A DNA stretch of 64,000 nucleotides from an uncultured Planctomycetaceae bacterium. Lineage in GTDB: Bacteria > Planctomycetota > Planctomycetia > Planctomycetales > Planctomycetaceae. Below the pieces are notes generated by a model. It did not search any database and was not told the DNA's origin. It saw only the letters and a list, made by a program, of their open reading frames with translations. The translations under genes were made by a program, and so were the position numbers. The stretch is taken from the NCBI GenBank assembly GCA_963976765.1, contig CAXBME010000008.1, forward strand, positions 186,001 to 250,000, in the 5' to 3' direction. Below are positions 30,211-54,864 of this stretch, piece after piece (positions within the stretch are counted from its first letter, which is position 1; every line of letters begins with the position of its first letter).

Positions 30211-30229
<19 letters not shown>

Positions 30230-31692
30230 CTATTGTTTGAGATGAGCCCTTCGGCGAGAACGTCGAAGGGTTTTCTTATTGTCGGGCATAGAGTTACGCC
30301 ATCGAGGGTGCAGTTCAAACAGACGATTTCGAGGATTCGACGCTTTGCATCGTAATCGGCAGTAAGCCATTGCTGACGCAGCGTTTGCGAAAGTTCAAAC
30401 ACTTTGGACGCCAGTTCATCGCGTGAGCGGTCAACCACATCGAGCTGAAGCTTGATGGATGCCAGGCGGTCACGGAGTTCCGTGCTCTTGCGGGCGTAGA
30501 CTTCCTGATCGATGTCATCCGCCAGCCGCAGATTGAGCAGGCGGTCCTGCTGCTGCACCAGCAGAGTTTCCTGACGCTGAAGCTCTGCCCTTTGAGCCTG
30601 AGCATCAGCCTGAGAGTCTCGTGTCTGAGACGCAAGCACGGTTCGGAACCAGTCTCGAACCGCTTCGTCTTCGATCCGCATCCGATCGAAGAGGGCTAAT
30701 ATCTGGCGATCGAACTCGGCTTCCGGAACCCGCACGCGGGGATGTCCGGCTGCCGTGTACCGGGCACACCGGTAATAGATGTAGTAGCGGGGACCGCTTT
30801 TCGTCATCTTTGTTTTACGCTCTCCGGTGACCGGATGGCCGCAATGAGCACAGTGCATGAACTCGCCGGAATACGTCAGGGCGTGTGAGTGGTAATTGCT
30901 GCCTCCCAGCAACGCCTGCACGCGGTCCCATGTCGATCGATCAATCAGCGGTTCATGCTTTCCGGGATACCATTCGCCGCGAAATTCCAGCTCGCCGATA
31001 TAGGCCCGGTCTCGCAGGATGTTGTGAATTGAACCTCGCGGAAACTTCGGCATCGACTTGCGCCAGACTGAACTCCCGGCGTTCATCTTTTCCGTCACGC
31101 CATCGAGTGTCAGATTCTCATAGGCGTAGAGATGAAAGATGCGGCGAACGTTGTCGGCCTGCTGTGGTTCGATTTCGACGATGCCACGTCCGTCTCTGCG
31201 GACATTACGGTAACCATAAGGAGCAAGTCCGACGAACCAGCCTTCCCTCACACGACGGGCGAGACCTTCCCGGACATCGACAGACTGCTGCTCCGTATAG
31301 AAGCTGGCCATGTTGGCCAGCGTTCTTCTCATCATACGCCCCGCCGGATTGTTCTCTGTCGGCTGTGAAACGCAGATGAAGGGGACGTCGTACTCGGATT
31401 CGAGACGTTCAATTTCCACGAAGTCAAACAGATTTCTGGCGGCACGGTCGACCTTGTAGACCAGCAGCCCGTCCAGTTCGAAACAGTGTTTCTTCGTGTA
31501 AGAAATCAACTCGCGAAATGTCTTCCGTTCATCCGACTTGCTCGCTGTTTCGGCGATGCGGAACAACCGGGCAATCGTCCCGTTGTTCGATTCGGCATAA
31601 CGCTTGAGAGCATCCTCCTGAATATCCAGCGAGAAGCCTTCACGCTCCTGCTCCCTCGAAGAAACACGAGCCAACGCGACGAACTTCTTCAT
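30211..31692 (-). CDS. Large serine recombinase (integrase)
   Basis: ARVSS catalytic Ser, VDRAARN, APYGY recombinase domain, CAHC...YYRC zinc ribbon, coiled coil. Confidence 0.95.
30247..30277 (+). terminator. Terminator downstream of tRNA-Pro, embedded in the integrase CDS
   Basis: CCCTTCGGCG-AGAA-CGTCGAAGGG then TTTTCTT. Confidence 0.7.
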
Positions 31693-31781
31693 GATACGGC
31701 TCCGATGAAAAATCCGTTCCAGTCAATCCGCAGTGTATCGACCGATCTGCGGCGCGCGAGTTCACTTCCACACCACAGAAC

Positions 31782-31812
31782 AAAAAAGGCCGCATCTGCG
31801 GAAGATGCGGCC
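31782..31812 (-). terminator. Rho-independent terminator upstream of the integrase
   Basis: Minus strand GGCCGCATCT-TCCGC-AGATGCGGCC followed by TTTTTT. Confidence 0.8.
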
Positions 31813-31869
31813 ACGAAGTCCTGAAACGTATCAAGCTCATTGTGCCTCCTGCTGAACGATGAAATCACA

Positions 31870-32088
31870 TCAGCCGTCCGGATGCTGGTGTGACCTGCCG
31901 AGCAGCGAGACCAGATTTCCCACGGAAATCAGCATCTCGACAGCGTCTGCTTCAGTCAAAGGTTCTCTGTAGTACCGCTGCCAGACGGCAATCGTCTGCT
32001 CGACCAGTGCCTTATCAATCCAGACCGGAGTGCCAGGCGGCGGGCGAGTCATTCTGTCCGGTTGTCTGGGCATAACTTCCCCCGTCAT
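31870..32088 (-). CDS. Small hypothetical protein upstream of the integrase
   Basis: Co-oriented ORF with protein-like sequence PPGTPVWI...TIAVWQRYY..PLT..DA.EML. Confidence 0.65.
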   Translation of the reverse strand: MTGEVMPRQPDRMTRPPPGTPVWIDKALVEQTIAVWQRYYREPLTEADAVEMLISVGNLVSLLGRSHQHPDG

Positions 32089-32130
32089 CAGTCACGCTGG
32101 TTACCAGTCGCTCAACTCGTTGCACTCCGA

Positions 32131-32433
32131 TTACCGATCTATCTCCATCGCATCGCGATCCATTGACCGATCCTGTGACTGATCTTCGTGTGCCGCTGCT
32201 CTTTCCAGCGCGCGGTCGAGCGTTGACTGTTGAGGTTCTTCATTGGCGTTCAGATCACGATCCTGCCGCGCGTCAGCAATTTCGCCGGGTGTCAGCGTTC
32301 CATACAGTCCATATTCGGGCTGCTGGGCGACGTTCGACTCGGGATAGATGGCTCCTCGAAGTTCGCGAAGTCCCTGCCGAAGGAAGGCTGAGGCGTGTCC
32401 AGCACCAATCTTTGGCTCTGAATCTGATTTCAT
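32131..32433 (-). CDS. Hypothetical protein with a charged C-terminal tail
   Basis: AGGAG RBS; in operon with the coupling protein. Confidence 0.75.
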   Translation of the reverse strand: MKSDSEPKIGAGHASAFLRQGLRELRGAIYPESNVAQQPEYGLYGTLTPGEIADARQDRDLNANEEPQQSTLDRALERAAAHEDQSQDRSMDRDAMEIDR

Positions 32434-32454
32434 TGCTTTTCTCCTGAATTAGAA

Positions 32455-33045
32455 TTAACCACGACGTCGGTTCCGAAAGTCTTCTGCAAGCCCCTGCTGG
32501 TCGATGACGGCATCGTTCAGGTCATACAGCCGGGTCTGATTCTGGACGGACCACGCATTCGCGAGAAACGCCATGCAGATTCCACCGATCACGATGTAAA
32601 GCCCGAGCGGTTCATCATTCGGGATGAGCAGACATCCCAGACCGATAATAAGCAGTGGTTCCATCGTCCGTTTGAATGTGACTTCAGAGCACTTCATCCA
32701 CGGCAGGAACTTCATCAGTACGGGAAAGCCGTTGTAGTACGAATGCCATACTTCCCCCCGCTTCTCCCGCGCACGGATTCCTTGCCGATGACAGAAGCAT
32801 GCCATGAGGTAATAGAACAGCCACAGGCCCAGCTCATCGACGTTCTGCACCTGCTTGAACATGCACCACAGTGGTGCCAGTACGAGTACGGCTGCCGCCT
32901 GCAGCCCCAGATATCTGGCTCCGAAGCCGCCGCGAATGAACACTTCAATTGACGTCGCCCACGTCTGGACGACGAACAGGCCGAAGTTTGACTTCTGCCA
33001 GATGTCCGCTGTTGTTGAAGAATCATGACCTGTCTGTGACATCAC
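32455..33045 (-). CDS. Integral membrane hypothetical protein
   Basis: About four hydrophobic segments; directly downstream of the coupling protein gene. Confidence 0.75.
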   Translation of the reverse strand: MMSQTGHDSSTTADIWQKSNFGLFVVQTWATSIEVFIRGGFGARYLGLQAAAVLVLAPLWCMFKQVQNVDELGLWLFYYLMACFCHRQGIRAREKRGEVWHSYYNGFPVLMKFLPWMKCSEVTFKRTMEPLLIIGLGCLLIPNDEPLGLYIVIGGICMAFLANAWSVQNQTRLYDLNDAVIDQQGLAEDFRNRRRG

Positions 33046-33128: not shown

Positions 33129-34604
33129 CTATAGATGTTGCTGAAAGACGACTGGCATCCAGGGTTTTCCAGTCGCTTCAAAACGTCTTCCGCCCTGATA
33201 GACGATGGTGTCCGCCACAAAGTCCGGCGGCCCGCCCTTGCGGAGTGTGCCAAACACCGTGGGCTGGACTTCCCACTCGTAGGTTTCATTGACGCCTGCC
33301 GTGTACTGAGCAGGCTCCAGACCGAACATCGAACTGACGAGGTCACTTGAAGGACGGCTGCTGTTCGCGTTTATGAGATACTGCCTCGTCTTTCCGATTA
33401 ACTCAGCGGCATAAGCGTTCGTTTTCACATCCGACTGTTGGTGAAAGATCTTGGTGTTCAAATTACCCATCAGAGAATTAACCTCTGGCTCGGCCTTGTC
33501 ACCAAGCACCGCCAGAAAGTTACTGACACTCTGCGTGGCATTTACCACTGCCGTTCGTGTCGACCGTGCCGTCGTTTGAAAGAGCTGGTCACTGGAAGTC
33601 GTCAGCAGATGGGATTCATCGACGACCAGGAACACCGGTCGAGGATTCCGGCTCACATCTCGACGTTCCTGAGCCTTCTGCAGGCAGTACTTCCACAGTA
33701 CCTGCACGAAGAGACCGACTTCCCCGAATACCTTGATCGGAAGATCAAGCAGGATCACCTTGCCGTCCTGGCACATTTCCGGAGTGACGTTGCTTTCGGG
33801 AGCCGAGAGCAACTCCCGGACGATTCCACGATTGAGCACGTCGAGCATCGACGTAAATGTGCTTAGGACGACCGACCGGGTTCGTTCACTCAGATTCGCC
33901 CACTCGAACGCAAAGAAGTCCGCAACCAGTTCAAAGTCGGCCTGTTGAATCCGCGTCTTCGGCTTGCCGTCCGCTTCACGCAGACACTGAAAGCAGAACG
34001 AGCTGTTCTTCCACTCGTCGGAACTGAGCTGATCCCGCGACACCGGAGCCGATACCGCGAGTCGGTACAGACTCGGCACATCGAGGCCGCCCTTCGCCAT
34101 ACTCAGCAAATCGACGCAGTTCTTCATGAGCTGGCGGTTCGCTCTTTTCCAATAACCTGAATCTTCCCCTTCGTTACTTCCCGAGTTGCGTTCGCGAACT
34201 TCCAATAGCGTGCTGAGCAATGAGACGACGTTTTCCGTCAGGCCGGCACCGGCATCTTTTCGCTTCACCTCGGCGTCGAGTGGGTTGTAGCGGAGCGGTT
34301 CCGTCGGCCCGAAAACCATCAGGTCATCCAGTCTTCCGGTTTCGCGCAGGTACCGCTCATACATGGCACGGTCAGTGGGCTTTACGGTTGTCAAAATTCC
34401 GCCGTAACCGGCCTTCAGGAACGCTTTCACAATGGCCGCCATCGACGAGGTCGTCTTCCCACACCCAGTGCTTCCGAAGACTGATACGCCTTCGTATGAG
34501 TGCCCGATCGTCCAGGCATCCCCGGCAGAGAACTGCAGCAACGGAGTGGAGAAATCCCACTGGCTGCGAGCACGTCGAATCTGACCTCGTCGGAATGGCC
34601 ACAT
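33129..34604 (-). CDS. VirD4/TraG-like type IV coupling ATPase
   Basis: Walker A GSTGCGKT, YNPL, Walker B LVVDESH, ARS...ATQS, GNLNTKIF, A.ELIGK. Confidence 0.85.
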   Translation of the reverse strand: MWPFRRGQIRRARSQWDFSTPLLQFSAGDAWTIGHSYEGVSVFGSTGCGKTTSSMAAIVKAFLKAGYGGILTTVKPTDRAMYERYLRETGRLDDLMVFGPTEPLRYNPLDAEVKRKDAGAGLTENVVSLLSTLLEVRERNSGSNEGEDSGYWKRANRQLMKNCVDLLSMAKGGLDVPSLYRLAVSAPVSRDQLSSDEWKNSSFCFQCLREADGKPKTRIQQADFELVADFFAFEWANLSERTRSVVLSTFTSMLDVLNRGIVRELLSAPESNVTPEMCQDGKVILLDLPIKVFGEVGLFVQVLWKYCLQKAQERRDVSRNPRPVFLVVDESHLLTTSSDQLFQTTARSTRTAVVNATQSVSNFLAVLGDKAEPEVNSLMGNLNTKIFHQQSDVKTNAYAAELIGKTRQYLINANSSRPSSDLVSSMFGLEPAQYTAGVNETYEWEVQPTVFGTLRKGGPPDFVADTIVYQGGRRFEATGKPWMPVVFQQHL

Positions 34605-34621: not shown

Positions 34622-35452
34622 CTATTCGGCCACTGCCGACTGAGCCTGATCGCGCAACATGGCGATGAAGCTGCTCAGTTGAATGCCTGAGGCACGAACT
34701 TTCCTTGCCTTGTCAAGCACTTCTGAGATGACATCAATAAAACATTCGAGCGACAGGTCACTGCCTGTTACGGTGACGGATCGTCCGTGACCCAGCATGG
34801 CCGTCACCCTCTTCGGCGATGTGGCCGACGCTTTCTGCGGCGTCTTCTGCCTCCGATGTCTGCCGGCGATCGCGTCGCGTGTCATGCGCCCGGAAGCAAC
34901 GGCGTCGGCCAGCTGCTGCCGTGCTTCTTCATCTTCAATGCGAGTCAGTTCATAAGCCGCAGAGGCAGAAATTTCGCCTGCAGCAACCTGCTTCTGAACC
35001 TCATCAGGAAGTTCCAGTAACTTCAACAGCCGTGACACTGTCGCGTTGGATATTCCCAGGTGAGATGCCGCCTCGCTGGCGTTCCAGTTCGTTGCATCCA
35101 TGAGGCGATGGATCGCTCGTGCTTTCTCCATTCCGCCGAGATCGTTTCGCTGGACGTTCGCGATCAACTGTCTCTGGACAATGTCGCCGGTAGTCAGCTC
35201 GGCATTCTCAACGATGGCGGCAATCGTCTTCTCACCGAGCAACTTCATGGCGCGATACCGCCGCTCGCCATCCACGAGAATGAAGGACTCACCTTCACGA
35301 CGAACCCTGGCAGGGGCGAGCTGCCCGACCGCCTGAATGCTGGCACCCAGACCTGCCAGCGACTCTTCATCGAACTCAGTCCGCACCTGTTCCTCCGCCA
35401 CGATCTGGTCGATTGGCAGATGGACAATCTGCTCAAGCTGGGTCTTCGACAT
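34622..35452 (-). CDS. parB: ParB/RepB/Spo0J family protein
   Basis: QVRTEFDEESL..L.ASI...GQL.P, LVDGERRYRA, N.QR.DL, HTH ASEAASHLGISNATVSRLL. Confidence 0.9.
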   Translation of the reverse strand: MSKTQLEQIVHLPIDQIVAEEQVRTEFDEESLAGLGASIQAVGQLAPARVRREGESFILVDGERRYRAMKLLGEKTIAAIVENAELTTGDIVQRQLIANVQRNDLGGMEKARAIHRLMDATNWNASEAASHLGISNATVSRLLKLLELPDEVQKQVAAGEISASAAYELTRIEDEEARQQLADAVASGRMTRDAIAGRHRRQKTPQKASATSPKRVTAMLGHGRSVTVTGSDLSLECFIDVISEVLDKARKVRASGIQLSSFIAMLRDQAQSAVAE

Positions 35453-35491: not shown

Positions 35492-35788
35492 TCATGCTTT
35501 GGCCCGCTGCCGTTCACTGGCCTGCTTCGCCTGCCTAGCCGCAGCGATGGCCAGAATCAGTGCGCCGACATCGTCAATCAGCCCGGCAGGTCCGAGAGCC
35601 GCTTCAGGGAGAACATCGATCGGTGAGATGCAGTACAGGCCACACAGGGCAACCAGCACCCAGCCGGCCACTTTGACGACGAAGTTCTGAAACGGGCTCT
35701 GCGGAAGTGCCAGACACACCATGAACGCCGTCAGCAGGAATGTCCCGCACACGATCACTAAATGAATCAGTCCGAACAGTGAACTCAT
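35492..35788 (-). CDS. DUF1232/YkvA-like membrane protein
   Basis: YCISPIDVLPE...GLIDD motif after two TM segments; GGAG RBS. Confidence 0.75.
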   Translation of the reverse strand: MSSLFGLIHLVIVCGTFLLTAFMVCLALPQSPFQNFVVKVAGWVLVALCGLYCISPIDVLPEAALGPAGLIDDVGALILAIAAARQAKQASERQRAKA

Positions 35789-35837
35789 TTCGTTTCTCCA
35801 GGTAAGTAACAGGTTTCCAATCGTCATTTGAGAAAAT

Positions 35838-36707: not shown

Positions 36708-38534
36708 TCACTCAGGCTGATGTACGATTCGGAACCCAGTCCCCGAGTTTTCTTTGCTCCACTCCGATGGATATCCCGCTTTGCACCAGTAGGACTCGTA
36801 CGACCACGAAGCTCCGGTGATCTGATATCCGTCGATGGCATTTCCAACGATCTCGAACACGTTGCCGAAGATATCGTAGATTCCTAACTCGTTTGGCTGT
36901 TTCTTACCCACTGGATGCGTACGCCCACCGCTATTCGCCCCGTACCATGCTACATCTTCGATTTCATCATCTCGTGGCAGTTCGTTCGGTCTTGCTATGT
37001 ATTCCCGCCGAACGCCACTTCCATCAGTCGCTGCCTGAGTCCACTCGGTCAGAGATGGTATCCTCAGACGTGCGCCGGCAAAGCGGGACAATTCCCGGCA
37101 GAAGAGTTCAGCGTCTTCTGGAGTCACATACTCCACAGGCAAGTCAGCAGCAGGCGAATTATCAACGGGAAAGTAGCTCGGGTTTTCTCTCAGCCCGGAT
37201 ACTTCCGATACGGCATTCCACTGCGCCTGTGTTATCTCTGTGCGGCTGATCCAGACGTCTGCCGTGTTACTGTTACCCGGCGAGAACACAAACGGAATTG
37301 CAAGGCCGATCGATGACAGTTCCAGCGTAAAGATCTGCCCTCGCACAGGACTCTGTGGAAAAACAACCAATGGCTGCGGGTTCGCATCTGGTAATTCTGG
37401 AATCACCGGTTTAGGCAAAACCGGTGCATCTTCCGTTGTTGCAGAAGGGGGCGAAGCTGATCTTACTGCCGATACAACAGGCTCATCTGTAATCGCATCT
37501 GGCGAGGTCTGAACGTCAGCAGCCACGACTTCGTCGCTGACTGTTTCCAGAATTCCCGGCCCCATACTTACACAAGCGACCCCCGCTAAAACCGCCACGA
37601 CCGCCGCAGTCACTGCATTTGCTGATGACGCTGCAACAGCGACTTTTCCTGTTGTTGCTATCGCAGAACCTGTCGTCGAGAGTGTTGATGCTGTACCTGG
37701 CACTTCCGAAATGGTCAGACCGTTCTGAACAGTCAATGCCGCCTCTCCGGCTGCTGCTCGTTCAGATGCCGCTGTCGTCAGTGCCACGAGAATGCCTGCG
37801 ATTACAGCCTCTTCATATCCCATGCCCCGCAGAAACGATTCGATTTCCCGTTTGCTTTTTGCCACATAGGCACAGACTGTATTCGGTTTCTTGTCGAGCA
37901 GCCTGCCAATATCCGCGAGTGTACTGTCGCCGCAGATTGCTTTTGATTCACGGGCAATCGTTCCGGCGACCCCGCACAGCCCGTCCAGAAACTCCCGCAA
38001 TTCGTGCATCAGGACGACTACTTCAGGTGCATCGAACCTCATGTCCGTTGCCGCAGTCACGACTGCATCAACATCCGGTTCTCCATCACGGATCAGAATA
38101 CCGTTCGCTGTTGGGAACCGATTTCGTCCGTGCAGGTCTCTCCATCGCTGCGCCTTCTCTTCGTCAGTGGGAGGCTTGGGAAAGCCCGATCGCAGGTGTT
38201 CCCGCTTACGCTTTGTCGCTCGGATCTGGCTTGAAACGAGACGACTTAGCACTACGGAGGCGGTTTCTTCTTCCTCATTCTGGACCCATGAGACGGCAAT
38301 TCCAGGCAGTTTCATGGCGATTCTGCCCATACAGTCTTCAGCCCCATCTCTCCCAAGTTTCCATTTTAGATGGACACAACTTGATTCCCAAATGCGACAG
38401 AGAAGCTCGCGGTACACTTTCTGGGAAGCAGCTCCACCTGAGCCTGCCCCGAACGTGAGCAGCAGGTCGTCCAGCTCCCCGGAAATACGCTCGTTCTCGT
38501 CATTGCACATTTCATCCAGATAGCTGCTTGCCAT
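36708..38534 (-). CDS. ECF-sigma-like N-terminus + TM + formylglycine-generating-enzyme (SUMF1/FGE) domain
   Basis: AEDC region-2-like segment, HTH TLADIGRLLDKKPNTVCAYVAKSK; TEITQAQW, LPVE.V, RIPS..EW, THPVGKKQPNELGIYDIFGNVFE, GFRIV. Confidence 0.75.
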   Translation of the reverse strand: MASSYLDEMCNDENERISGELDDLLLTFGAGSGGAASQKVYRELLCRIWESSCVHLKWKLGRDGAEDCMGRIAMKLPGIAVSWVQNEEEETASVVLSRLVSSQIRATKRKREHLRSGFPKPPTDEEKAQRWRDLHGRNRFPTANGILIRDGEPDVDAVVTAATDMRFDAPEVVVLMHELREFLDGLCGVAGTIARESKAICGDSTLADIGRLLDKKPNTVCAYVAKSKREIESFLRGMGYEEAVIAGILVALTTAASERAAAGEAALTVQNGLTISEVPGTASTLSTTGSAIATTGKVAVAASSANAVTAAVVAVLAGVACVSMGPGILETVSDEVVAADVQTSPDAITDEPVVSAVRSASPPSATTEDAPVLPKPVIPELPDANPQPLVVFPQSPVRGQIFTLELSSIGLAIPFVFSPGNSNTADVWISRTEITQAQWNAVSEVSGLRENPSYFPVDNSPAADLPVEYVTPEDAELFCRELSRFAGARLRIPSLTEWTQAATDGSGVRREYIARPNELPRDDEIEDVAWYGANSGGRTHPVGKKQPNELGIYDIFGNVFEIVGNAIDGYQITGASWSYESYWCKAGYPSEWSKENSGTGFRIVHQPE

Positions 38535-38912
38535 GATTGTCTTGCCTCAACGGGGACTGATTTGGATGACCTGAAATCTATAGGGACAATTGACCGATCA
38601 GTTCTTCGGGTAAATCTCAAAAAAAATCTGAAGTATCTTTCTGCCGTGACTGCAACATGCTGCTGGCAAGAGATTTACGATGTAAGGAGTTTCCAGTTTA
38701 TTGAGACGGTGTCGATACATTCGTTCCCGAGTTTCCCGCGTGACCTCGAATTTGCCAAGCGACGCGACACTCGCAGGTTGGATTGGTAACCAGGCAAATG
38801 ATTGTCTGCCACATGAACCCATCCGGTCGGCTGAGGTGATTGAGGCAAATAACGTCCTTTATTTATCACTAAGAGCTTGCGCCGACAAATCGACTGCGCT
38901 ACGTTCGGCAGC

Positions 38913-39896
38913 ATGGATTCCGAACCTCAGTCGTTAATGATTCTTTCGCCCGGTCGTCGCGAGCTTGTCGCGACGGATCTTCCTTCATCCATTCTTGCCG
39001 CCGGTACAGCGGCTGGATTTGCCTGGGATGAATTCTTCGGTGGCATGGTCCGCAACCGCCATACGCGAGCGGCCTATCTTCATGCCGTGCGGAAGTTTCT
39101 TGTGTGGGTTGAATCCAGCAACATATCGCTGGAGCGGATTACACCCGGCATGGTCGGAGCGTATTTCGACCAGCATTCCGGCAGTCTGCCGACTCGCAAG
39201 CTGCATCTGTCGGCCATCCGGGCTTTCTTCGATGTGCTCGTGAATCGGCATGTCGTCGTTCTGAATCCCGCGACCACCGTACGTGGTGAGCGATATCAGG
39301 CCGTCGAAGGTAAGACGCCCGAGATTACTCGCGATCAGGCTCGTCGACTGCTGGCGTCTATTGACACAAGTCGTCCTGTCGGTCGTCGAGATCAGGCCAT
39401 CATTGCCACACTGATCTACACGGCGGCCCGTGCCGGGGCGGTGGCCGGTCTCCGTCTCAGGGATTTCCTCTGGGATGGCACGCAGTACACGCTCCGCTTC
39501 GCCGAGAAAGGTGGAAAATCACGCTCAATTCCGGTCAGACACGACCTGCAGCTTGTGCTCACCGCCTACCGCGAGGACTTCGACTGGCAGCATGAGCCGA
39601 AAGACGCCTGTCTGTTCCGCTCAGTGGCGGGACGCACCGGTCAGCTCTCAACGCAGCCGCTTCGCAACATTGATATCTGCCGCATGGTCAAGCGCCGGTT
39701 GAAAGATGCCGGCCTGCCCGAGCATCTCTCGCCCCACTCCTTCCGTGTCGCCACCGTTACCGATCTGCTCACACAGGGGGTCTCTCTGGAAGACGTCCAG
39801 TATCTGGCCGGTCACGCCGATCCCCGCACGACCCGGCTCTATGATCGCCGCCAGAAAGTCGTCACCCGCAATACCGTGGAACGTATCTCGATCTGA
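38913..39896 (+). CDS. Tyrosine recombinase (XerC/D-like resolvase)
   Basis: RDQAII..LIYTAAR, EKGGK, SPHSFR, LAGHAD..TT.LY; start uncertain (38877-38937). Confidence 0.93.
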   Translation: MDSEPQSLMILSPGRRELVATDLPSSILAAGTAAGFAWDEFFGGMVRNRHTRAAYLHAVRKFLVWVESSNISLERITPGMVGAYFDQHSGSLPTRKLHLSAIRAFFDVLVNRHVVVLNPATTVRGERYQAVEGKTPEITRDQARRLLASIDTSRPVGRRDQAIIATLIYTAARAGAVAGLRLRDFLWDGTQYTLRFAEKGGKSRSIPVRHDLQLVLTAYREDFDWQHEPKDACLFRSVAGRTGQLSTQPLRNIDICRMVKRRLKDAGLPEHLSPHSFRVATVTDLLTQGVSLEDVQYLAGHADPRTTRLYDRRQKVVTRNTVERISI

Positions 39897-45072: not shown

Positions 45073-45108
45073 GCAACACGCGCGATTCGTCCAGCTTCGA
45101 ATCGTGCG

Positions 45109-45471
45109 TTACCGGCCCCGCCCTTTAGTGTCTCCAAATATCATTTCATCCGTAAACTCCGGATGAAGCTCACGGAGCTTCATCCGCATCAGATGCAAGG
45201 TCTGGCCCATAACAGCTTGACTTGCGGGATCCGTCGGAAGCGGATCATTCATCTCACCTTCGAAACCGCCTGCTGAAATCATCGGCTGAGCCTCGACCTC
45301 CACGATGTCAGCGGCTTCGTCCACAGTCACTTGGCCATCGGCGATGCGTGCGTGCAGAAAGCAAATAAATAGATTGCGTTTCTCAAGGGAAGACATGAAT
45401 CCATGTGTACACATCTGTGAGAATTGGTCAAGTACATTCTGTTGAGCTCGTATCTGTTCGTGCTTTCTCAT
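45109..45471 (-). CDS. Hypothetical protein
   Basis: GAGGA RBS; 120 aa, protein-like composition. Confidence 0.55.
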   Translation of the reverse strand: MRKHEQIRAQQNVLDQFSQMCTHGFMSSLEKRNLFICFLHARIADGQVTVDEAADIVEVEAQPMISAGGFEGEMNDPLPTDPASQAVMGQTLHLMRMKLRELHPEFTDEMIFGDTKGRGR

Positions 45472-45980
45472 AGCAAATCCTCTTCGTCGACCGGATACTT
45501 TCGCGACGTGCGGTTCCTGATGATATCGTAGGGCGTTTCACTGTGAGTAGGCTACATTCGGTATCTCGCAGTACTTGGCACCGTTTCAGGTCGATCGAGC
45601 CAGCTTTCGTGTCTTTTGAAGTCGCTATTCGATGATCATGGATCATGGCGAAATGTGTTGCCGAGCAGGACGCATGAACTCTCAACTGAGATCGGGATAT
45701 CAATCGCATCATCCGCTGAGAGCTGCTTGTGGGAAAACGGTTGTCAAACAGTAATCGAATGGTCGATCTGCACCTGATCGATGGAGGACAGGATGCCAAA
45801 CGCCGATTGTTTTGTTCGTTTTGCCGCCTTGTCATGACTTCTTCCGGCAGCGAGTGTGCTAATGCGTGCATCTATCGAATTGAGTGCTCTGCCTCAAGAG
45901 ATCATTCTTTCGGTGAACCGGCGAAGCGTTGATGTTGTCTAGGATTTGAAGCAAATCTTGCCGAATAACAGGAGTGGCCA

Positions 45981-46199
45981 ATGGGTACATCAGAACCGAA
46001 GGGAAATTGTGTGGACGTCCGATGTCGTCGTTGCAGCGGATCAGGAGAAGTGCTCGGGACATCTTTTGTCTCGCCATCATGCGGATCAAATCCATCTGAA
46101 TTAGTGGAATGTCCTGTCTGCAAAGGAACTGGAAAAACAGCTACTGACATTGAAGTATCCGGTCAGTGCCACATGACTGACTCACGGAATCATTTATGA
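45981..46199 (+). CDS. Small DnaJ-type zinc-finger protein
   Basis: AGGAG RBS; CRRCSGSG and CPVCKGTG (CxxCxGxG x2). Confidence 0.6.
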   Translation: MGTSEPKGNCVDVRCRRCSGSGEVLGTSFVSPSCGSNPSELVECPVCKGTGKTATDIEVSGQCHMTDSRNHL

Positions 46200-46248
46200 C
46201 GAATCCGGTGTTCCAAGTTATGAAGTTCAACTCTCAGTCGTTATCGAA

Positions 46249-46650
46249 TCACCATTCGATCTGCTCGATCAGCACGCCCTGTCCCTGTGACTCCATGATG
46301 GCTGGTTCATCGGCTTCCTGTACCCACGGGACGCGGTGCTGGCAGATGCCGCGAAACAGTCTTGCTTCGCCCTGCACCTCGCCGTTCAGATTCCGTCCGC
46401 GAATGACTATCTTCTGACCGCTGACCGACAGGGTGATGCCCTCCGACGGATCGAACGAGATCCGGTCAATCCATGCGTAACCGACGCCGAGGATGCTGCC
46501 GTCTTTCTTACGCAGTTCCAGAGTCAATGCACGGTCGCGAATGCCGCGCAACCAGCCAAACGCACCGAAATCGTCAGGCACGTCGATCCTGCTGGATTCC
46601 TGATCCACAGTTGGTCTGATTCCGAATCGATCAAGGACACTATCGCTCAT
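46249..46650 (-). CDS. Relaxase-linked conserved hypothetical protein
   Basis: ATG 46650 overlaps the relaxase stop; the paralogous copy differs largely at synonymous sites. Confidence 0.8.
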   Translation of the reverse strand: MSDSVLDRFGIRPTVDQESSRIDVPDDFGAFGWLRGIRDRALTLELRKKDGSILGVGYAWIDRISFDPSEGITLSVSGQKIVIRGRNLNGEVQGEARLFRGICQHRVPWVQEADEPAIMESQGQGVLIEQIEW

Positions 46651-49288
46651 ACGCCAGCTCCCTTTCTCTGGATGCAGCCTTCGGCTCAGGAGCCACACTC
46701 AGCAGTTCCCGCCGTCTGATGGCAGCGGCCTTATCGTGCCAGTGTTGATCGGTCAGCAGTTCGGTGGCGGTTACACGGTCATCCTCATGCTGCACGGCCT
46801 TGAGCAGGTCATTCCTGCTGTCCGTGTAAACCGTGGCTGACTGCTTTCCGCGTGAGACTGACACGTAGAACTGCTCACGCGATGAAGCCGGAAAGCTGTC
46901 GGACGACTGCCCGATCAGCACGCGATCGACGCTGCGGCCCTGACTGGCATGGCTGGTGACGCAGTAGCCGTAAGTCAGGTGACCGTACCCACGGTCAATC
47001 TTCCAGCCGTTTTCCAGCACGATGTTACCCCCGACATCAAATCCGCCAATGCGATGCAGGTCGCCGTTATTGAGGCGATGTTTTCCGTCGAGCGTCTTTC
47101 CATTCCGGGTTACCCGCAGCATGTCGCCGGGAGCGAAGCGAATCTCCGTCGGATGAAAGACCTGAAAGCGTGCGGCCTGATCGGTCGGGAGTGCCTCCTC
47201 ACCGGCCACCACACGCTGGCCTTTCGTGTAACCCTTCGCATTCTGGTGAAAGACCAGCACATCGCCTGGCAGATAGCTGACCGCATCCATCCGCTGAGCC
47301 TGTGTCAGGTTGATGTTTTCCAGCACATGGAAACTCCGTTCGTCCTTCCCCAGACGCTCGGCCTCCCGCAGCCCGGAACGGATCGCCTGTGTGATCCTGT
47401 CACCCTCAAAGTGCATCGGGGACACGACCAGGGTTCTGTCGCCCTGTTCGATCGAGTCGATGTAATCGGCGGCAATCACCCGATAACGCTCAGCCGTGCC
47501 GACTTCACGAATCCAGCCGAGCTGATCAAGCTGCCGGAAACCATCTTCGGTGCGGCCATCGGCCAGAGCCTGCACGGCCTGTTTGTAATTCCCCTTCTGA
47601 CGCTGAATCTCGCGGATGTCCGCCGGCACGAGTCCAGCTTCTTCTTCCAGCAGCCGCAATGCGGCTCCCCGTTCGACCGAGCCGTGCTGCCGCCGGTCGC
47701 CACTGAGCACCACCCGGCAATTGTTTTCAGCAGCCAGATCAAAGAGCTGAGCCATCGTGCGGCTGCCCAGCAGTCCTGCCTCATCGATCCACAGCACCTG
47801 GCCACGAATCTGCTCCTGCAGCTTTGTATCAACCAGCAGCCGCGCCACGGTCTCAGCCCGCTCGAAACCTTCCTGCTGGAGCACATCCCGAGCCGTCGCG
47901 GACGGAGCGAAGGTAAAGACCTGCATTCCGTCAGCTTCAATGCCCTCGACCGCTTCCTGCATCATGGTCGTCTTGCCGACGCCCGCTGCCCCGCGCACCA
48001 GTGTCACCACGTCGCGGGAGTTCCATACATGCTCGACCGCCTTTTGCTGATCGGCATTGAGCCAGCCCCGCTGAATACGCTGTTCCTTCGCGGCGATCCG
48101 GCCCAGCCGTCCCCGGCCTTCACGGGCAAAACGGATCATCTGCCGCTCTTCAGCGATGACGGCTGAGGTGGTGACCATGTCTCGACCGCCGCGTTTCGCA
48201 CGAATGACATCCGCTTCCCGCCAGGCATTCTCTACTGATTCTACCGAACTGCTGCCCACCGCCTGCTTCAGTGCATGAGCCAGAACTTCGCGTTCCGCAG
48301 CGACGGATTTCCGCTCGAAGACATGATCCAGTGACAACGCTACAGCCGTCTTCGCGACATCGGGATCCTCATCGGGATCCTCATCGGGTCCACGATCTCC
48401 CATCTGGTCGAAGATCGATTTTACGGCCTGCTGTTCATCATTCGACAGTCGCGATCGCCACTCCAGAGCCAGTTCTGGCAGCGTGAGTTCCTTCTGCTTG
48501 CGGTCCCGTGTCCGTGCTCCCAGTTCGGCCTTCAATTTCGGATCAGACACGCCACGACGTTCAGCTTCTTCCTCGATCATCAGTGTTCGACGGGAGAAGC
48601 GATCCGTGACAGCACGGTCAACGCCGGCCAGCTCCCAGCCGGTACGTGTCCGCTCAACGGGCAGCCCCAGCTCGACCAGTCGCCGGGCCAGCCTCGCATG
48701 AAATTTGGCCTCAAAATATGAAGCATCACGCTTCAAGTCTCCGATCTGACCGGCTTTCCACGCCGCCTCTTCCGCATCCCATGTCGCGTTGAACACGAAG
48801 CAGTGAGCATGCAGGTGCGGATCCGGGATGCCATTAACTGGCCGGGCGGTGAAATGAATGAACTCGCCAAACACCATGTTGCCCGTCGTGCGGTCTTCAT
48901 TCCTGCCGGATTTCCGCACGCGGGTTTTCATCTCCGCTTCCATGTCCCGCATGGTTTCCGCCACGGACTGCTGGAAGGCATCCAGCAGCCGCTCATCACG
49001 CGTGAGGCCATACAGCAGCGACACACTCTTCGGCACATGAAAGTTGAAGTCATAGCCGACACGCCGTTCTGCTTTGCGGCGCAAGGTCAGCGGGGCTCCG
49101 GTTTCCGGTATCCGGTTGTCACACAAGGCATCCCAGTCGGCCTGTCGAATCCCGCCTTCCAGTCCAAGCCGCTTTGCCCCCTCACCTCGCCAGATGCCGG
49201 TCAGCTCCTGACCCTCGCTGTAATAGTCCGCCGTACTGTAATACGACTTCGCGCCGGCTGGCGATGTATTCTGAACGATGCGCAGCAT
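46640..49288 (-). CDS. mobF: MobF (TrwC/TraI) relaxase-helicase
   Basis: AKSYY..ADYY, GYDFNFHVPKSVS, H.TARP...PDPHLHAH, GAAGVGKT, WIDEAG, GDRRQHGSV, Y.VTSHASQG.SVD, FYVSVSRG. Confidence 0.97.
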   Translation of the reverse strand: MLRIVQNTSPAGAKSYYSTADYYSEGQELTGIWRGEGAKRLGLEGGIRQADWDALCDNRIPETGAPLTLRRKAERRVGYDFNFHVPKSVSLLYGLTRDERLLDAFQQSVAETMRDMEAEMKTRVRKSGRNEDRTTGNMVFGEFIHFTARPVNGIPDPHLHAHCFVFNATWDAEEAAWKAGQIGDLKRDASYFEAKFHARLARRLVELGLPVERTRTGWELAGVDRAVTDRFSRRTLMIEEEAERRGVSDPKLKAELGARTRDRKQKELTLPELALEWRSRLSNDEQQAVKSIFDQMGDRGPDEDPDEDPDVAKTAVALSLDHVFERKSVAAEREVLAHALKQAVGSSSVESVENAWREADVIRAKRGGRDMVTTSAVIAEERQMIRFAREGRGRLGRIAAKEQRIQRGWLNADQQKAVEHVWNSRDVVTLVRGAAGVGKTTMMQEAVEGIEADGMQVFTFAPSATARDVLQQEGFERAETVARLLVDTKLQEQIRGQVLWIDEAGLLGSRTMAQLFDLAAENNCRVVLSGDRRQHGSVERGAALRLLEEEAGLVPADIREIQRQKGNYKQAVQALADGRTEDGFRQLDQLGWIREVGTAERYRVIAADYIDSIEQGDRTLVVSPMHFEGDRITQAIRSGLREAERLGKDERSFHVLENINLTQAQRMDAVSYLPGDVLVFHQNAKGYTKGQRVVAGEEALPTDQAARFQVFHPTEIRFAPGDMLRVTRNGKTLDGKHRLNNGDLHRIGGFDVGGNIVLENGWKIDRGYGHLTYGYCVTSHASQGRSVDRVLIGQSSDSFPASSREQFYVSVSRGKQSATVYTDSRNDLLKAVQHEDDRVTATELLTDQHWHDKAAAIRRRELLSVAPEPKAASRERELAYER

Positions 49289-49791: not shown

Positions 49792-49995
49792 ATGTCTGAT
49801 AACAACAACAGTTCGAGCAGATCCCCCAGTCATGTCGCCTATCAGGTGCGTGATCGCGAGGGGAAAAAAGGATTCTGGACGCGTATCGGCAGTGTCTGGG
49901 CACACGCTGACGGCAAAGGCTTCAACGTCCAGCTCGAATGCGTGCCACTCGATGGACGCATCACCCTGCGACTGGCCACCGAGAGCAACGAATAG
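49792..49995 (+). CDS. Small hypothetical protein (DUF736-like)
   Basis: AAGGAG RBS; FWTRIGSVW.H.DGKGFNVQL. Confidence 0.75.
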   Translation: MSDNNNSSSRSPSHVAYQVRDREGKKGFWTRIGSVWAHADGKGFNVQLECVPLDGRITLRLATESNE

Positions 49996-50052
49996 CGTTT
50001 TCACTGGGCGGGCGGCAACGCCCGCCCCACAACCAGAGAAAGGACTCTCATC

Positions 50053-50319
50053 ATGAAACTTGAAATTGAAACCATTGCCCGCCATCGCAACGGCATCTGT
50101 GGCGCACCGTTCCACGTCCTGCTGTTTTCCGACATCGGACTGCATCACACTCGTAAGCTCGCCATCGTGTTTGACGCTCCGCACCACGTCGCCGTTCTCG
50201 ACGTCGCCAGACTCTCCCGAGGAGACATCGCGTTCGTCACCAACTCGTGGCGGGGAGACGTCTACGAGCCACACCTGCGAAAAGCCATTGATGCCTCTGA
50301 GCAGGAGTGTCTGCCATGA
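50053..50319 (+). CDS. Hypothetical protein
   Basis: AAGGA RBS; HRNGICGAPF...NSWRGD; coupled to the next gene. Confidence 0.75.
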   Translation: MKLEIETIARHRNGICGAPFHVLLFSDIGLHHTRKLAIVFDAPHHVAVLDVARLSRGDIAFVTNSWRGDVYEPHLRKAIDASEQECLP

Positions 50320-50552
50320 ACAGCACTCCCGACATGAACAATGCTCTGCGGGCAGCCCGAGCAGAACGTGCCCTGTCCAGATATCAGACAGACAGTGACC
50401 TCCAGACCTGCCTTGTGGATCTGCTCGCCGACGCCATGCACTGGTGCGACTACTGCGGCGCGGACTTCCATCTGAGCCTTGCCCAGGCGTGCCGCCACTA
50501 CATCCACGAACTGAACGATCAACAACACGATGAAAGGAGAATCATCCCATGA
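50316..50552 (+). CDS. Hypothetical helical protein
   Basis: AGGAG RBS, ATGA overlaps at both ends; DLLADAMHWCD. Confidence 0.75.
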   Translation: MNSTPDMNNALRAARAERALSRYQTDSDLQTCLVDLLADAMHWCDYCGADFHLSLAQACRHYIHELNDQQHDERRIIP

Positions 50553-51337
50553 CCAGCACTGCCGATATCAATCCGTTCTACGCGGCCCGTCGCAACCGGC
50601 CTGCTGTGACTCAAAACCCACCGCACACAGTCGCTCCACTGCGTTATGCAAGACTGCCGCTGGCTCCACGGACGGCAAGTCCCGTTCCGCATCTGACGAG
50701 CCTGTATCACTTCCATCGGGCGGGTGACTACGGTGACCGGAGTTATCCCGGCAACTGCGGCGGTAATCTCATCAGGGATCTGCTGCTCTACTTTCGACCC
50801 GGACTGGTTTACGACCCGATGAGCGGCTCGGGAACCTGTGCCGATGTCTGTCGCGAGATGCAGATTCCGTGTCTGTCATTCGACATTCATCAGGGATTCG
50901 ATGCCTGCGATCCGCAAGGATTCGGCACTGACGAAGTGTTCGACTTCATCTGGGCACATCCGGCCTACTGGCGGCAGAAACTTTATGCCAACGATCCGCG
51001 TGACCTGTCGCGGTCTCCGACACTCGATCACTTTCTGCGACGGTACGCTCAGTTTATCCGCAACAGTGCCAACTCCCTGAAAGCTGGCGGCAGGCTGGCG
51101 ATTCTGATGGGCGACTATTGCGACCGCGAAGCAGGCTTCGTGCCCCTGACCTTCCACACGAAACGGCTTGCGTTCGCGGCGGGATTGCAGCAGTGCTGTA
51201 CCGACATCATTCGGTTCAGTCACGGAGCCAGCAGCTCGCGGAAAGTCTATCGCTCCTCGTTCATTCCCGGTCTGCACGACGTGTGCATGATCTTCGAGAA
51301 ACAGACTGACAGCAGCAGGGGTACGCGCCATGACTGA
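50549..51337 (+). CDS. Orphan amino (N4/N6) DNA methyltransferase
   Basis: YPGN, motif I DPMSGSGT, motif IV-like HPAY, LK.GG.LAIL.GD. Confidence 0.82.
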   Translation: MTSTADINPFYAARRNRPAVTQNPPHTVAPLRYARLPLAPRTASPVPHLTSLYHFHRAGDYGDRSYPGNCGGNLIRDLLLYFRPGLVYDPMSGSGTCADVCREMQIPCLSFDIHQGFDACDPQGFGTDEVFDFIWAHPAYWRQKLYANDPRDLSRSPTLDHFLRRYAQFIRNSANSLKAGGRLAILMGDYCDREAGFVPLTFHTKRLAFAAGLQQCCTDIIRFSHGASSSRKVYRSSFIPGLHDVCMIFEKQTDSSRGTRHD

Positions 51338-51566
51338 AGTTATCGACTCATTGCGATCGCTCCTCGCCGAGCAGAAATCCATCGCCATCGTCTGGAACAT
51401 CGAAGACGTGCAGTCCGTCCGTCCCGATCTCACCGCCGAACAATGCTGGCAGGTGCTCACCGACGTTCGCCGTAATCATGATGCCTGCGTCGGCATCAAC
51501 TGGGACGTGCTTGACTGCGTTGCATTCGAGCTGTTCGGTGCCCCGCAGCAGGAGGCTTCAGCATGA
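51330..51566 (+). CDS. Hypothetical protein
   Basis: Overlapping operon gene; W..EDV...RPDLT..Q...VL......HDA..GINW. Confidence 0.75.
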   Translation: MTEVIDSLRSLLAEQKSIAIVWNIEDVQSVRPDLTAEQCWQVLTDVRRNHDACVGINWDVLDCVAFELFGAPQQEASA

Positions 51567-51910
51567 CGACACTTATCACGCTCAGCGAAGAGCAGTTTGA
51601 AGCTCGCTTCCCCCTCATCCGCAATCACCTGAATCCCACAGCCTGCTGGGATTCTGGCGACGGATACGGATGCCTGTTTGATAACACTGGCCCAGAGCTG
51701 GACTTCATCCAGCAGGCCGACCCCCTCACCGTCTGGACCGTGGTTGATGGCGAAGACGGTGACCTGTACGTTCTCAGTGGCCGTCACTTTGTGAACCGGA
51801 TCGGCTACCTCGTCAGCACCACGGCCATTGACGCCGGTGTCCAGTTCGAGGTTCCTGTCCGCATGGCCGACGACGCGGATGTCGGGCGTTCGTCAGAGTC
51901 CAACTCATGA
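51563..51910 (+). CDS. Hypothetical protein
   Basis: GGAGG RBS, ATGA overlap; VWTVVDG...G.HFVNRIGY. Confidence 0.75.
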   Translation: MTTLITLSEEQFEARFPLIRNHLNPTACWDSGDGYGCLFDNTGPELDFIQQADPLTVWTVVDGEDGDLYVLSGRHFVNRIGYLVSTTAIDAGVQFEVPVRMADDADVGRSSESNS

Positions 51911-52490: not shown

Positions 52491-52504
52491 AGGCGTCTGG
52501 TTGT

Positions 52505-53188
52505 ATGATTATTGTAATTGCAAATTCCAAAGGCGGTGTCGGTAAATCGACACTCGCCGTTCACCTGGCGGCATGGCTGGCTCGCCAGGGCCACCGCGTT
52601 ACGCTGGCTGATTGTGACACGCAGCAATCTTCCTCAGAATGGATTCGCGAGGCATCACCGGAAGTGAAAGCCGTCCGCCTCGCGAATCCGGACATTATCC
52701 TCAACGAACTGCCGACACTCGGGCAGGATGCCGACTATGTCATTGCCGACGGTCCCGGCAGCCAGACGGAGACCAGCCGCGCATTACTGCTGCGGGCTGA
52801 CATGGCCATCGTTCCGTGCAAGGCCAGCATGCTGGAAGTGAGAGCACTGGCCAAAGCCACCGACGTCCTGCGTCAGGCTCAGGACATCCGTGCCGGCCAG
52901 CCGAAAGCCATCATCGTGCTGAGCATGATCGGCAAGAAATACCGGCTCACCAAAGACATGAAGGACGCGGCATCCGCACTCAATCTGCCGCTCGCCACCA
53001 CCGCCATGACACTGCGTCAGATTTATGCTGATGCGCCGGGGCAGGGAGCCACTGTCTGGGACATGGGTGCTCGTGCCCGCGAAGCCGCTGCCGAAGTTGA
53101 GCATCTCTTCCGCGAGATGCTGCCTGCCGCATGGAAGCGACGCGGCAACCAGACGACGACTACAAAACCGAAGACTACGAAGAAATAG
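52505..53188 (+). CDS. parA: ParA family ATPase (short, type Ib-like)
   Basis: [24 protein letters not shown]; no N-terminal HTH. Confidence 0.93.
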
Positions 53189-53200
53189 GGGAGGGCGAAC

Positions 53201-53503
53201 ATGGCAGAGCGACGCTCACTCATTGAAGGACTCAAAGACACCCCGCCACCCGTCGACACACGTCTGGAGAAAGATTTTGTCTACGGCGACCAGCCGAAAC
53301 CAACTCCCGAGGTGGCTCGGCCACCAGCCAGCCCGGCTCTGTCGCGGGTGCCGATCAGCACGCGGATCCGCTCTGACTTCGCTTCCGCTCTCAAGCGGGC
53401 ATCGCTCGAACGGCAATTGAGCGGAACGGAACCGAACACGTTGCAGGACATCCTCGAAGAAGCCATTGAGCCGTGGCTCAAATCCAACGGTTACAACGAC
53501 TGA
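53201..53503 (+). CDS. Ribbon-helix-helix partition adaptor (ParG-like)
   Basis: Flexible N-terminus, then RVPISTRI strand and two helices; directly follows parA. Confidence 0.65.
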   Translation: MAERRSLIEGLKDTPPPVDTRLEKDFVYGDQPKPTPEVARPPASPALSRVPISTRIRSDFASALKRASLERQLSGTEPNTLQDILEEAIEPWLKSNGYND

Positions 53504-53523
53504 TAACCATTGCCGGAGAGCTG

Positions 53524-54564
53524 TCAGCCCGGCATTCCCCTGCGTTCGTACCATTTCCGGCAGAATCCAATGAAAGCCGCGTCAGCGTCTCGGGGCGCTT
53601 CGCTGATCCAGTCACGCCATTCCCGCTCCAGGTAGTACACATCCCAGCCCGGAGCCGCCGTTCGGGCATCGTGATACGTCTCAGGATTCAGTGGCGGAAT
53701 CTGAGCGAGGGCGGGTTCTGCCAGAAGCCCGGCGGCTTCCCGGCTGCGGAAAGTCACCATGTCCGATTCCATCGAAATCGAATAGTCGGGCATGTGCTGA
53801 AACCGGAGATCCTCAGCAGCAATCTTTGAGACAAGTCGCCGAAACTCCTTCTCGGTCGAAGCCGACCCGCACTTCTTCTGCAAAACCTGCAATGAGATTT
53901 TCCACTCACTCTGCTTCCCGCAATGCTTGCGGGCAATCTCATAGATCCGCCGCTCCAGCGGCTTCCGCAGACGGAAGTAATCGCGGTGCAGTGTCAGCAC
54001 TTCCTGATTCCGGATCGCATTGAACACCCAGTCCGAGAGTTTGATTTCGATTTCCTGCATTCGCCCATCACGGGTTTCACGGACAATTCTGGCACGCTCA
54101 ATAAGTCCAAACGTCTCGAAAATCTCCTGCCCGCCGGTGACGAGGTTCGTGCTGATCCGCGTTCCAGCCAGACGCTCGAACGCGGCCTTCAACGCCTCAT
54201 AACCCTGACCATTGGTCATGCGGTTGGTGGCCTTGAGCAGGTCGTGAGCCTTGAATCTCACGACGGAAGAAACTGGTTGCCGGGCATTAATGGCTGCCAT
54301 CAACTGGCTGATACAGTAAATCAGGATGTCACGGTCATGGACAGTCGCCAGGCCATCGGCAGATGGCTTGACCTCGACAAAGACCGAACCATGTTCATAT
54401 CGGCGAATCCGATGATCCGGCTTCGTCGACAGCGAAAAGATCGGATGCTCCATGCTGGCCATGTCGCCCTTCGGAGCCAGATCCGTCAGATCGCAGACAA
54501 AGAAATCCGGCGTCGGATACCGATCAGGAAGAAGAGGAGGGCGGTCTCTGGCATGTTCAATCAT
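53524..54564 (-). CDS. repA: Plasmid replication initiator protein A
   Basis: KGDMASMEHPIFSL, GLATVHDRDILIYCISQL, RL.GT.I.TN, YFRLRKPLERRIYEIARKHCG; start trimmed to ATG 54564. Confidence 0.9.
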   Translation of the reverse strand: MIEHARDRPPLLPDRYPTPDFFVCDLTDLAPKGDMASMEHPIFSLSTKPDHRIRRYEHGSVFVEVKPSADGLATVHDRDILIYCISQLMAAINARQPVSSVVRFKAHDLLKATNRMTNGQGYEALKAAFERLAGTRISTNLVTGGQEIFETFGLIERARIVRETRDGRMQEIEIKLSDWVFNAIRNQEVLTLHRDYFRLRKPLERRIYEIARKHCGKQSEWKISLQVLQKKCGSASTEKEFRRLVSKIAAEDLRFQHMPDYSISMESDMVTFRSREAAGLLAEPALAQIPPLNPETYHDARTAAPGWDVYYLEREWRDWISEAPRDADAAFIGFCRKWYERRGMPG

Positions 54565-54577
54565 CGCCCGTCGATAC

Positions 54578-54757
54578 TTCGATAGATCACACACCAAGTC
54601 AAGCAGTTTCGATAGTTCAGCCACCGACGGTGTTGCTTCGATATTTCACACACCGCAACCGACCGCTTCGACAGTTCACACACCGCCTGAAACTTTCGAT
54701 GGTTTACACACCGTTTTTCGATGGTCTACACACCGGGTTTCGATAGTTTACACACCG
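54578..54757. repeat. Seven 19-bp iterons, consensus TTCGATAGTTYACACACCG
   Basis: Copies start at 54578, 54608, 54637, 54667, 54695, 54717, 54739. Confidence 0.92.
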
Positions 54758-54799
54758 ACCGTTCTGAATCTGCCAGCTAAATCAGCAGGTTACTGACCG

Positions 54800-54864
54800 T
54801 TATCCACAACGTAACACTCTATCTAACACAAGTATTTAACACACAATGCCAAGTCTGTGAATAA
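54800..54864. promoter_or_regulatory. oriV unwinding region with two inverted DnaA boxes
   Basis: TTATCCACA at 54800-54808 and TGTGAATAA at 54856-54864 flank an AT-rich spacer with three TAACAC repeats. Confidence 0.85.

Follow-up and report, generated by a model that had tools for sequence, protein, structure and literature searches.

How does a planctomycete chromosome come to hold a serine integrase, an iteron replicon and a relaxase side by side, and by what route could such an assembly excise, replicate and move when no mating channel accompanies it? The question is raised by a stretch of 64,000 nucleotides from an uncultured Planctomycetaceae bacterium (the window; contig C8:186001-250000, with C8 continuing 5.46 kb past the window end), whose 8.57 Mb genome is 100% complete in 95 contigs; positions below are those of the window unless a contig is named. 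The locus holds a bounded integrative and mobilizable element (IME) with a plasmid replicon, 39,023 bp long, which reaches from the 3' end of tRNA-Pro(TGG) to a right junction 5.25 kb outside the window. Several features by which IMEs are recognised are present, namely an own recombinase, flanking attachment sites (attL and attR), a relaxase together with a coupling protein, and no mating-pair apparatus. We consider it likely that this is a single 39-kb IME whose integrase gene spans its own attachment site, and which would excise, likely replicate and likely be mobilised via a channel encoded elsewhere; excision, replication and transfer are predicted here from sequence. The original prediction had described an integrating, probably replicating and mobilisable element at 30211..54864, a reading that stands, although its boundary was set 14 kb short and the att-spanning integrase gene was missed.

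The element is framed by three sites:

30156..30230, plus strand: host tRNA-Pro(TGG), intact, the integration target
30225..30230, plus strand: attL core, 6 bp, the same in the right junction
C8:255248-255253 (window-equivalent 69248-69253): attR core, beyond which lies sequence found behind the tRNA in relatives

The tRNA-Pro had been named as the integration site, and the attL core does lie at its 3' end. All six same-genus relatives keep the host gene and tRNA-Pro(TGG) in place, and the DNA past C8:255253 equals that behind tRNA-Pro(TGG) in five of them (matching from C8:255255 onward, 200 bp up to the contig end), the remaining one having another insertion behind the tRNA. A duplicated tRNA fragment was sought on C8 as right boundary and none was found, the two junctions having only 6 bp in common, so that the boundary was recognised not through a repeat but because the relatives' post-tRNA DNA matches there; this adds about 14.4 kb of cargo to the extent first proposed. 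Leftward of the common core the right junction diverges from the tRNA, and therefore the crossover would fall in the final few bases of the tRNA gene and leave that gene whole, a placement consistent with sibling G520 and with the base spread at other right junctions. Matching attL/attR pairs are found in two siblings, 34.8 and 39.8 kb apart, the empty site is present in contigs of related strains (runs X3 and X4), and one X2 contig spans attR with zero differences, X1 and X2 being one study and possibly not independent of the assembly. One boundary pair thus encloses the modules, and their order is kept in siblings, which argues against separate decayed elements. The cumulative GC skew has its turning point at the tRNA. 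The host side of the junction encodes PSD1/PSCyt2 domains and the nearest named integrase relatives are planctomycetes, both of which fit a planctomycete host.

The site has probably been used before, as it probably already held an older island before this element; behind attR (C8:255254-end, C65; loci L010, L013 and L014) lies what we take to be an integrase-like gene, common to relatives. Elsewhere, three tail-bearing right junctions (L114-L116) lie inside 1.6 kb of one contig as stacked att scars, and the left junction of one sibling (L064:390, G159) presumably resembles a tmRNA 3' end, not tRNA-Pro.

The left end is occupied by the integrase gene, and a frame without a start begins at the right end:

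30211..31692, minus strand: large serine integrase of 493 amino acids (aa), with Resolvase, Recombinase and Zn-ribbon Pfam domains
30244..30273, plus strand: terminator-like hairpin following the tRNA, lying antisense to the last conserved codons of the integrase
31870..32088, minus strand: 72-aa gene, conserved directly upstream of the integrase clade
C8:255165-255251 (locus L078), minus strand: startless 28-codon tail frame, beginning exactly at the right att core

The integrase, whose catalytic, recombinase, zinc-ribbon and coiled-coil domains are present, is oriented toward the tRNA, and its frame runs over attL to a stop codon in the antisense of the tRNA T-loop. Such an overlap of integrase and tRNA recurs in 20 of 28 loci of other genomes (17 Pro, 1 Ser, 1 His, 1 Lys), and 104 of 120 integrase homologues have the same stop position, with nine extending deeper into the tRNA antisense. 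The 72-aa protein, which matched no family, is by its position a candidate directionality factor. Between its gene and the integrase gene a terminator-like hairpin (31788-31812) would keep the integrase insulated from the operon upstream, and no sigma-70-like promoter was found in 30100-32600. The clade was absent from the PLSDB plasmids (best about 30% identity among the matches listed), and no second serine recombinase was seen among the scanned element genes. In the same genome, C41:1770-4885 holds the 3' half of a tRNA-Pro(GGG), followed by an integrase of the clade and a second, divergent and broken one, and C56:16556-18749 holds a truncated copy of the same clade.

The tail frame at attR is in register with the integrase, and excision would join both into a protein of 516 aa. 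In order to avoid the bias of protein searches toward coding patterns, sites were also picked with a DNA pattern covering just codons 1-10; this gave at least 126 matches, of which 80, mostly from Planctomycetota, were retrieved, and after three of 81 sites had been dropped as too short, 78 were used. Codons 11-25 are stop-free in 74 of these sites, compared with 42 and 58 for the other forward frames and 53, 49 and 70 for the reverse frames; third positions are the most variable (codon entropy by position 1.58/1.46/1.79), stops are concentrated at codons 33-35, and six of the 78 sites are naturally fused to an integrase. Once the set is reduced to 37 dissimilar sites, the frame is open in 34 of them, whereas shuffled versions average 22 and reach 34 in 0 of 1000 cases; the hydrophobic residues are helically spaced even across dissimilar sites. 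The host side of the junction is open in 58 of 81 sites. By these measures the tail appears to behave as coding sequence. In the predicted fold of a natural 525-aa fusion (L137; predicted template modelling score 0.77) the tail forms two helices (predicted local distance difference test 76-82). Solved integrases align to about residue 480-486 of this fused model, mostly no further, and 13 of 16 solved rows cease aligning ahead of the crossover, hence the canonical architecture is complete in the short form, to which the tail is added.

As to what this addition does, a newly entered circle would make the long form only and a lone integrated copy the short form only, so that the long form must integrate and the short one excise. 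This argument is one of logic rather than experiment and starts from the observed anatomy of the gene; we give about an even chance to the amphipathic tail being a built-in direction switch, which would favour integration or bar re-excision. A role in stability or expression control is unlikely in our estimate, and somewhat less likely still are a neutral structural cap and, equally, conservation at the DNA level. A degron reading is not supported, as no more than five among the 73 tails have AA, AV or LA at their end (ssrA-type).

The genes that would serve transfer are spread over the left and central parts of the element:

46640..49288, minus strand: MOBF relaxase-helicase, 882 aa, exceeding the NF041492 cut-off
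33129..34604, minus strand: Type IV coupling-protein-like ATPase (TraG-D_C E 1.8e-7; TrwB_AAD_bind also over cut-off)
32455..33045, minus strand: 196-aa membrane protein of no named family, candidate membrane anchor
32131..32433, minus strand: conserved gene for 100 aa in the operon of the coupling protein, no family match
40390..41289, plus strand: ArdC antirestriction protein
49792..51910, plus strand: small genes plus an N6/N4 methyltransferase, forming a leading-region-like block that siblings share

In the relaxase, what we take to be the N-terminal tyrosine pairs and the histidine triad were seen by eye. The coupling ATPase is without a predicted membrane segment and matched no solved structure by sequence. 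Of the 29 other loci, 28 have a homologue of the 196-aa protein behind the ATPase; the protein matched no named family and falls into clusters without a name, from Planctomycetota, Verrucomicrobiota and Acidobacteriota. Eleven PLSDB plasmids carry related ATPases; some of these plasmids are small and have a relaxase but no annotated channel (one of 11 kb in Runella, one of 22 kb in Skermanella), and the 196-aa partner was not detected among the five genes downstream of the related ATPases on three free plasmids. The claim that mating-pair genes are missing has held up beyond the window: none was found across the scanned genes of the whole 39 kb, the VirB4/VirB10 profiles PF03135, PF19044 and PF03743 found no match in the host genome, and of ten pPSMK1 transfer proteins searched against that genome by tblastn, VirB11-like ATPases alone matched, at six places.

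Replication and maintenance would be served by a second set of genes:

53524..54624, minus strand: RepA initiator, PF10134 (E 1.4e-87)
54578..54864: putative origin of replication (oriV) with seven iterons, two DnaA-box-like sites and 65% A+T between them
52505..53503, plus strand: short ParA (52505-53188) and its 100-aa partner (53201-53503)
34622..35452, minus strand: ParB-family protein, adjoining the coupling ATPase, likewise in siblings
38877..39896, plus strand: tyrosine recombinase, XerC/D-like
41883..42547, minus strand: ParE toxin and addiction-module antitoxin

These are the features of an RPA-type iteron replicon, with a PF10134 initiator, adjacent iterons and an AT-rich region. The seven iterons (54578-54756) account for seven of the ten genome-wide matches at up to three mismatches, and DnaA-box-like 9-mers stand at 54800 and 54856; iteron-like clusters were seen at 13 of the 15 RepA loci examined. 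RepA is 58-69% identical to RepA of alphaproteobacterial plasmids, among the matches listed. It is thus far nearer to them than the published planctomycete plasmid clade is said to be. About 49 high-scoring RepA places were found in the class, a group that suggests a second RPA lineage. ParA scores 164.8 bits (cut-off 180), and the tyrosine recombinase would resolve dimers. Family scans confirmed as open frames the modules that had been named from the sequence (serine integrase, RepA with iterons, ParA, MOBF, coupling ATPase, tyrosine recombinase, toxin-antitoxin pair and ArdC). In the proposed pair of ParA and a ribbon-helix-helix (RHH) protein the ParA is present, while the RHH label of 53201-53503 is weak (Pfam E 0.016), and the ParB gene beside the coupling protein is new to the description, as are the DUF1232, FGE-sulfatase-like and methyltransferase genes that the scans brought.

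The same gene order, sought in other genomes, recurs in siblings. Among eleven sibling stretches compared, G568 and G583 share the order RepA, RHH, ParA, methyltransferase, small genes, MOBF, 149-aa gene, cargo, tyrosine recombinase, DUF1232, ParB, ATPase, 196-aa and 100-aa genes; G568 and G520 run on into the 72-aa gene, the integrase and tRNA-Pro, and in five siblings of another family the core is kept and this integrase was not in the retrieved DNA. Within a sample of 301 genomes of the class, which are kin and in many cases drafts, MOBF was found in 102, RPA in 79, the tail in 71, this type of ATPase in 55 and VirB4, with few candidates scored per genome, in none. A MOBF is located no more than 35 kb away from at least 29 of the 49 high-scoring RepA places, a lower bound, as the comparison used 48 listed MOBF places of the genomes concerned, 50 further MOBF matches lying outside the list. 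In the genome studied here, C27:59913-104754 carries a tail, ArdC and MOBF, and C42:1580-8555 carries ParB, ATPase, the 72-aa gene, integrase and tRNA-Pro(GGG); these parts probably belong to one further sibling element, larger than the present one and broken up among contigs. The genome also has an array of 38 tRNA genes at C5:82893-88140 and, at a contig end (C27:60-1338), a partial second array of 13 genes in similar order.

The remaining genes are cargo or have no assigned role:

35492..35827, minus strand: DUF1232 membrane protein
36708..38534, minus strand: 608-aa protein with FGE-sulfatase-like domain, variable cargo
42543..46531, minus strand: 3.7-kb cargo with a 269-aa open reading frame and an FCD-domain regulator
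55224..63350, minus strand: 2708-aa calcium-binding RTX-repeat protein, cargo
from 63623, past the window to C8:252427, plus strand: 934-aa FG-GAP and RTX-repeat protein, cargo
C8:252754-254646 (L078:3755-5647), plus strand: 630-aa HD-CE and IF-2B-like fusion
C8:254594-254962, minus strand: 122-aa gene, weak Rrf2-type match

The 3.7-kb cargo is bracketed by a 281-bp repeat (88% identical), which is the 3' part of the 149-aa gene behind the relaxase, and its 269-aa frame matched no solved structure by sequence. The 2708-aa protein is likely a surface protein, hemolysin models matching it far under their cut-offs. The 630-aa fusion is a possible nucleotide-based conflict or defence gene; PADLOC, run on the element genes, returned methyltransferase matches, one weak HD-domain match and nothing else.

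Taken together, the parts suggest the following cycle for the favoured IME. The chromosomal short integrase of 493 aa, with all canonical domains, would recombine attL with attR, with or without the 72-aa protein, and the resulting circle would join the integrase gene to the tail frame and encode the long form of 516 aa. RepA, the iterons, ParA, ParB, the tyrosine recombinase and ParE would maintain the circle through division. The relaxase would nick an origin of transfer (oriT), and the ATPase, which has no anchor of its own and is probably attached to the membrane through its 196-aa partner, would pass the DNA strand on to a channel provided by something other than the element. On entry the DNA may be shielded by ArdC and the methyltransferase, and the circle would integrate at a tRNA-Pro end.

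Several observations weigh against this account and have to be set beside its rivals. The integrase is three residues below the usual 496, with a gap in the coiled coil seen by eye, and this copy may be impaired; the junction of the excised circle (attP) was absent from runs X1-X4, which consist of contigs only, at low depth, and cannot show absence; and the G+C of the element (0.555) is close to that of the host (0.562). These three points, together with the decayed copies of the same integrase on C56 and C41, speak for an element that is bounded and intact-looking but fixed, with RepA and the relaxase as passengers of an old plasmid integration. We hold this to be improbable, as the core frames are all open, the iterons and both att sites are intact, relatives exist without the element at the site, and related elements (about 88-92% identity) occur in other samples. 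Fused junctions resembling attP are found in other genomes. RepA was absent from the retrieved stretch of some siblings, e.g., G520, and an alignment of the regions upstream of 12 relaxase genes gave no conserved oriT motif. Nor is a helper visible, VirB4 being found in 0 of the 301 genomes of the class (three candidates scored per genome) and in 0 of 141 by a second profile. Set against the frequencies of MOBF and of this ATPase type, that absence would fit transfer without a VirB-type channel, through the ATPase and its 196-aa partner, with or without the aid of a secretion or pilus system of the host, as would the constancy of a partner that belongs to no named family and was not detected on the three free plasmids. 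This route is nevertheless unlikely: on small plasmids of other phyla the same ATPase type accompanies a relaxase with no annotated channel, which is the usual helper-dependent pattern; with two membranes to cross, one small membrane protein is little for a channel-less route; and assembled genomes under-represent free helper plasmids, the phylum having one known MPF_T plasmid. That the element is instead an ordinary integrative and conjugative element, with mating-pair genes outside the window or in an assembly gap, is hardly credible; the assembly is in 95 contigs, but both junctions lie on one gap-free contig, mating-pair genes were found neither in the interval nor elsewhere in the genome, and the full type IV secretion system envisaged just beyond the window is not there, as the right end comes 5.25 kb after the window and the genome searches yielded no VirB4.

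The tail calls for the same weighing, as it could consist of an attP arm and neighbouring DNA or RNA signals, the open frame being incidental and without consequence for the enzyme. The footprint expected for the integrase extends over part of the tail (it overlaps codons 1-10), the canonical domains finish before the tail, and the ratio of nonsynonymous to synonymous polymorphism (pN/pS) is just 0.83 in a saturated comparison (other frames 1.0-1.1). One antisense frame is nearly equally open (70 of 78 sites, 33 of 37 dissimilar ones, pN/pS 0.85), and therefore frame statistics alone do not fix the strand; in addition, the scan pattern was built from protein-selected loci and the sites are related. 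However, conservation extends about 75 bp away from the core, as far as codon 25, third positions vary, and the helical spacing of hydrophobic residues, the grouping of stops at codons 33-35 and the natural fusions likewise argue against an incidental frame, which we regard as quite unlikely. Similarly doubtful is the far-reaching claim that integrating plasmids across the class move without a VirB channel and that their integrases set direction by gaining and losing the tail. For the 39-kb IME favoured here, two testable questions follow, namely how planctomycete MOBF elements move without VirB4 and what role the excision tail has. The relaxase-ATPase-membrane trio is found across the class with no visible channel, and the locus offers a natural test case for a serine integrase that may control its direction through exchange of its C-terminal tail. 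It also supplies exact parts, a seven-iteron origin and an integrase for a conserved tRNA end; cloning such integrases from the chromosome yields the short form, whereas integration may require the other one. This bears on practice, as one study states that standard replicons failed in Planctomycetes and that conjugation among them had not been reported (10.1101/2024.01.22.576637).

Much of the gene set has precedents, so that the novelty first attached to the element was somewhat overrated. IMEs with initiators, ParB, toxin-antitoxin systems and coupling proteins have been described, and like the present element they have their own recombinase, a relaxase, sometimes a coupling protein and no mating-pair formation (MPF) system, several carrying theta initiators (PMC5704250). 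In that account, as far as its available part goes, serine-recombinase IMEs disrupt dispensable genes and tRNA 3' ends are the targets of tyrosine integrases, whereas here a serine integrase restores the tRNA end; unlike the described IMEs, this one has no helper visible in the 301 genomes of its class (PMC5704250). In planctomycete chromosomes, five RPA initiators and 29 MOBF relaxases (in 21 chromosomes), the latter often with a coupling protein and without a complete MPF, have been reported, and planctomycete plasmids share with our element an RPA initiator with iterons, ParA/ParB and a MOBF relaxase (10.1101/2024.01.22.576637). The accessible text of that study does not delimit integrated elements, att sites or the integrase, which are delimited here, and it describes planctomycete RPAs as a separate clade with under 30% clustering with other phyla, whereas the present RepA is closest, among the matches listed, to alphaproteobacterial ones (10.1101/2024.01.22.576637). 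No paper on this element family or its tail was found in the literature searched, and TIGER (PMC7192596) may catalogue such sites; neither is described in the available parts of PMC12884075 and PMC10083194, the main text of the latter being without the word tRNA.

The closest parallel to the integrase gene is DsiB of Dehalococcoides, a CcrB-like large serine integrase that likewise points toward its target and always overlaps attL, whose stop codon lies outside the island, and which, as its authors suggested in 2011, is perhaps fully functional only on the circle (PMC3146451). The target is tRNA-Pro here and ssrA for the DsiB islands, the DsiA-like second recombinase and six-gene module are not found here, and the replicon, relaxase and coupling protein of our element are lacking or not shown in the ssrA islands, as far as the available text of that paper extends (PMC3146451). 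The same text calls the C-termini of DsiB divergent and names no conserved tail, whereas a conserved tail is measured here (PMC3146451). The integrases of Bxb1, phiC31 and a Listeria prophage (PDB 9iu2, 9rah, 4kis, 9dxd) have the same catalytic, recombinase, zinc-ribbon and coiled-coil domains. The tail lies beyond the point to which these solved phage chains mostly align. The integrase of phage Mx8 is a tyrosine recombinase, whereas the one described here is a serine integrase. Mx8, a phage rather than a plasmid-like element, likewise has its attP within the integrase gene, and integration gives that gene a new 3' end and the enzyme a changed activity, which has been read as a switch (PMC6070905).

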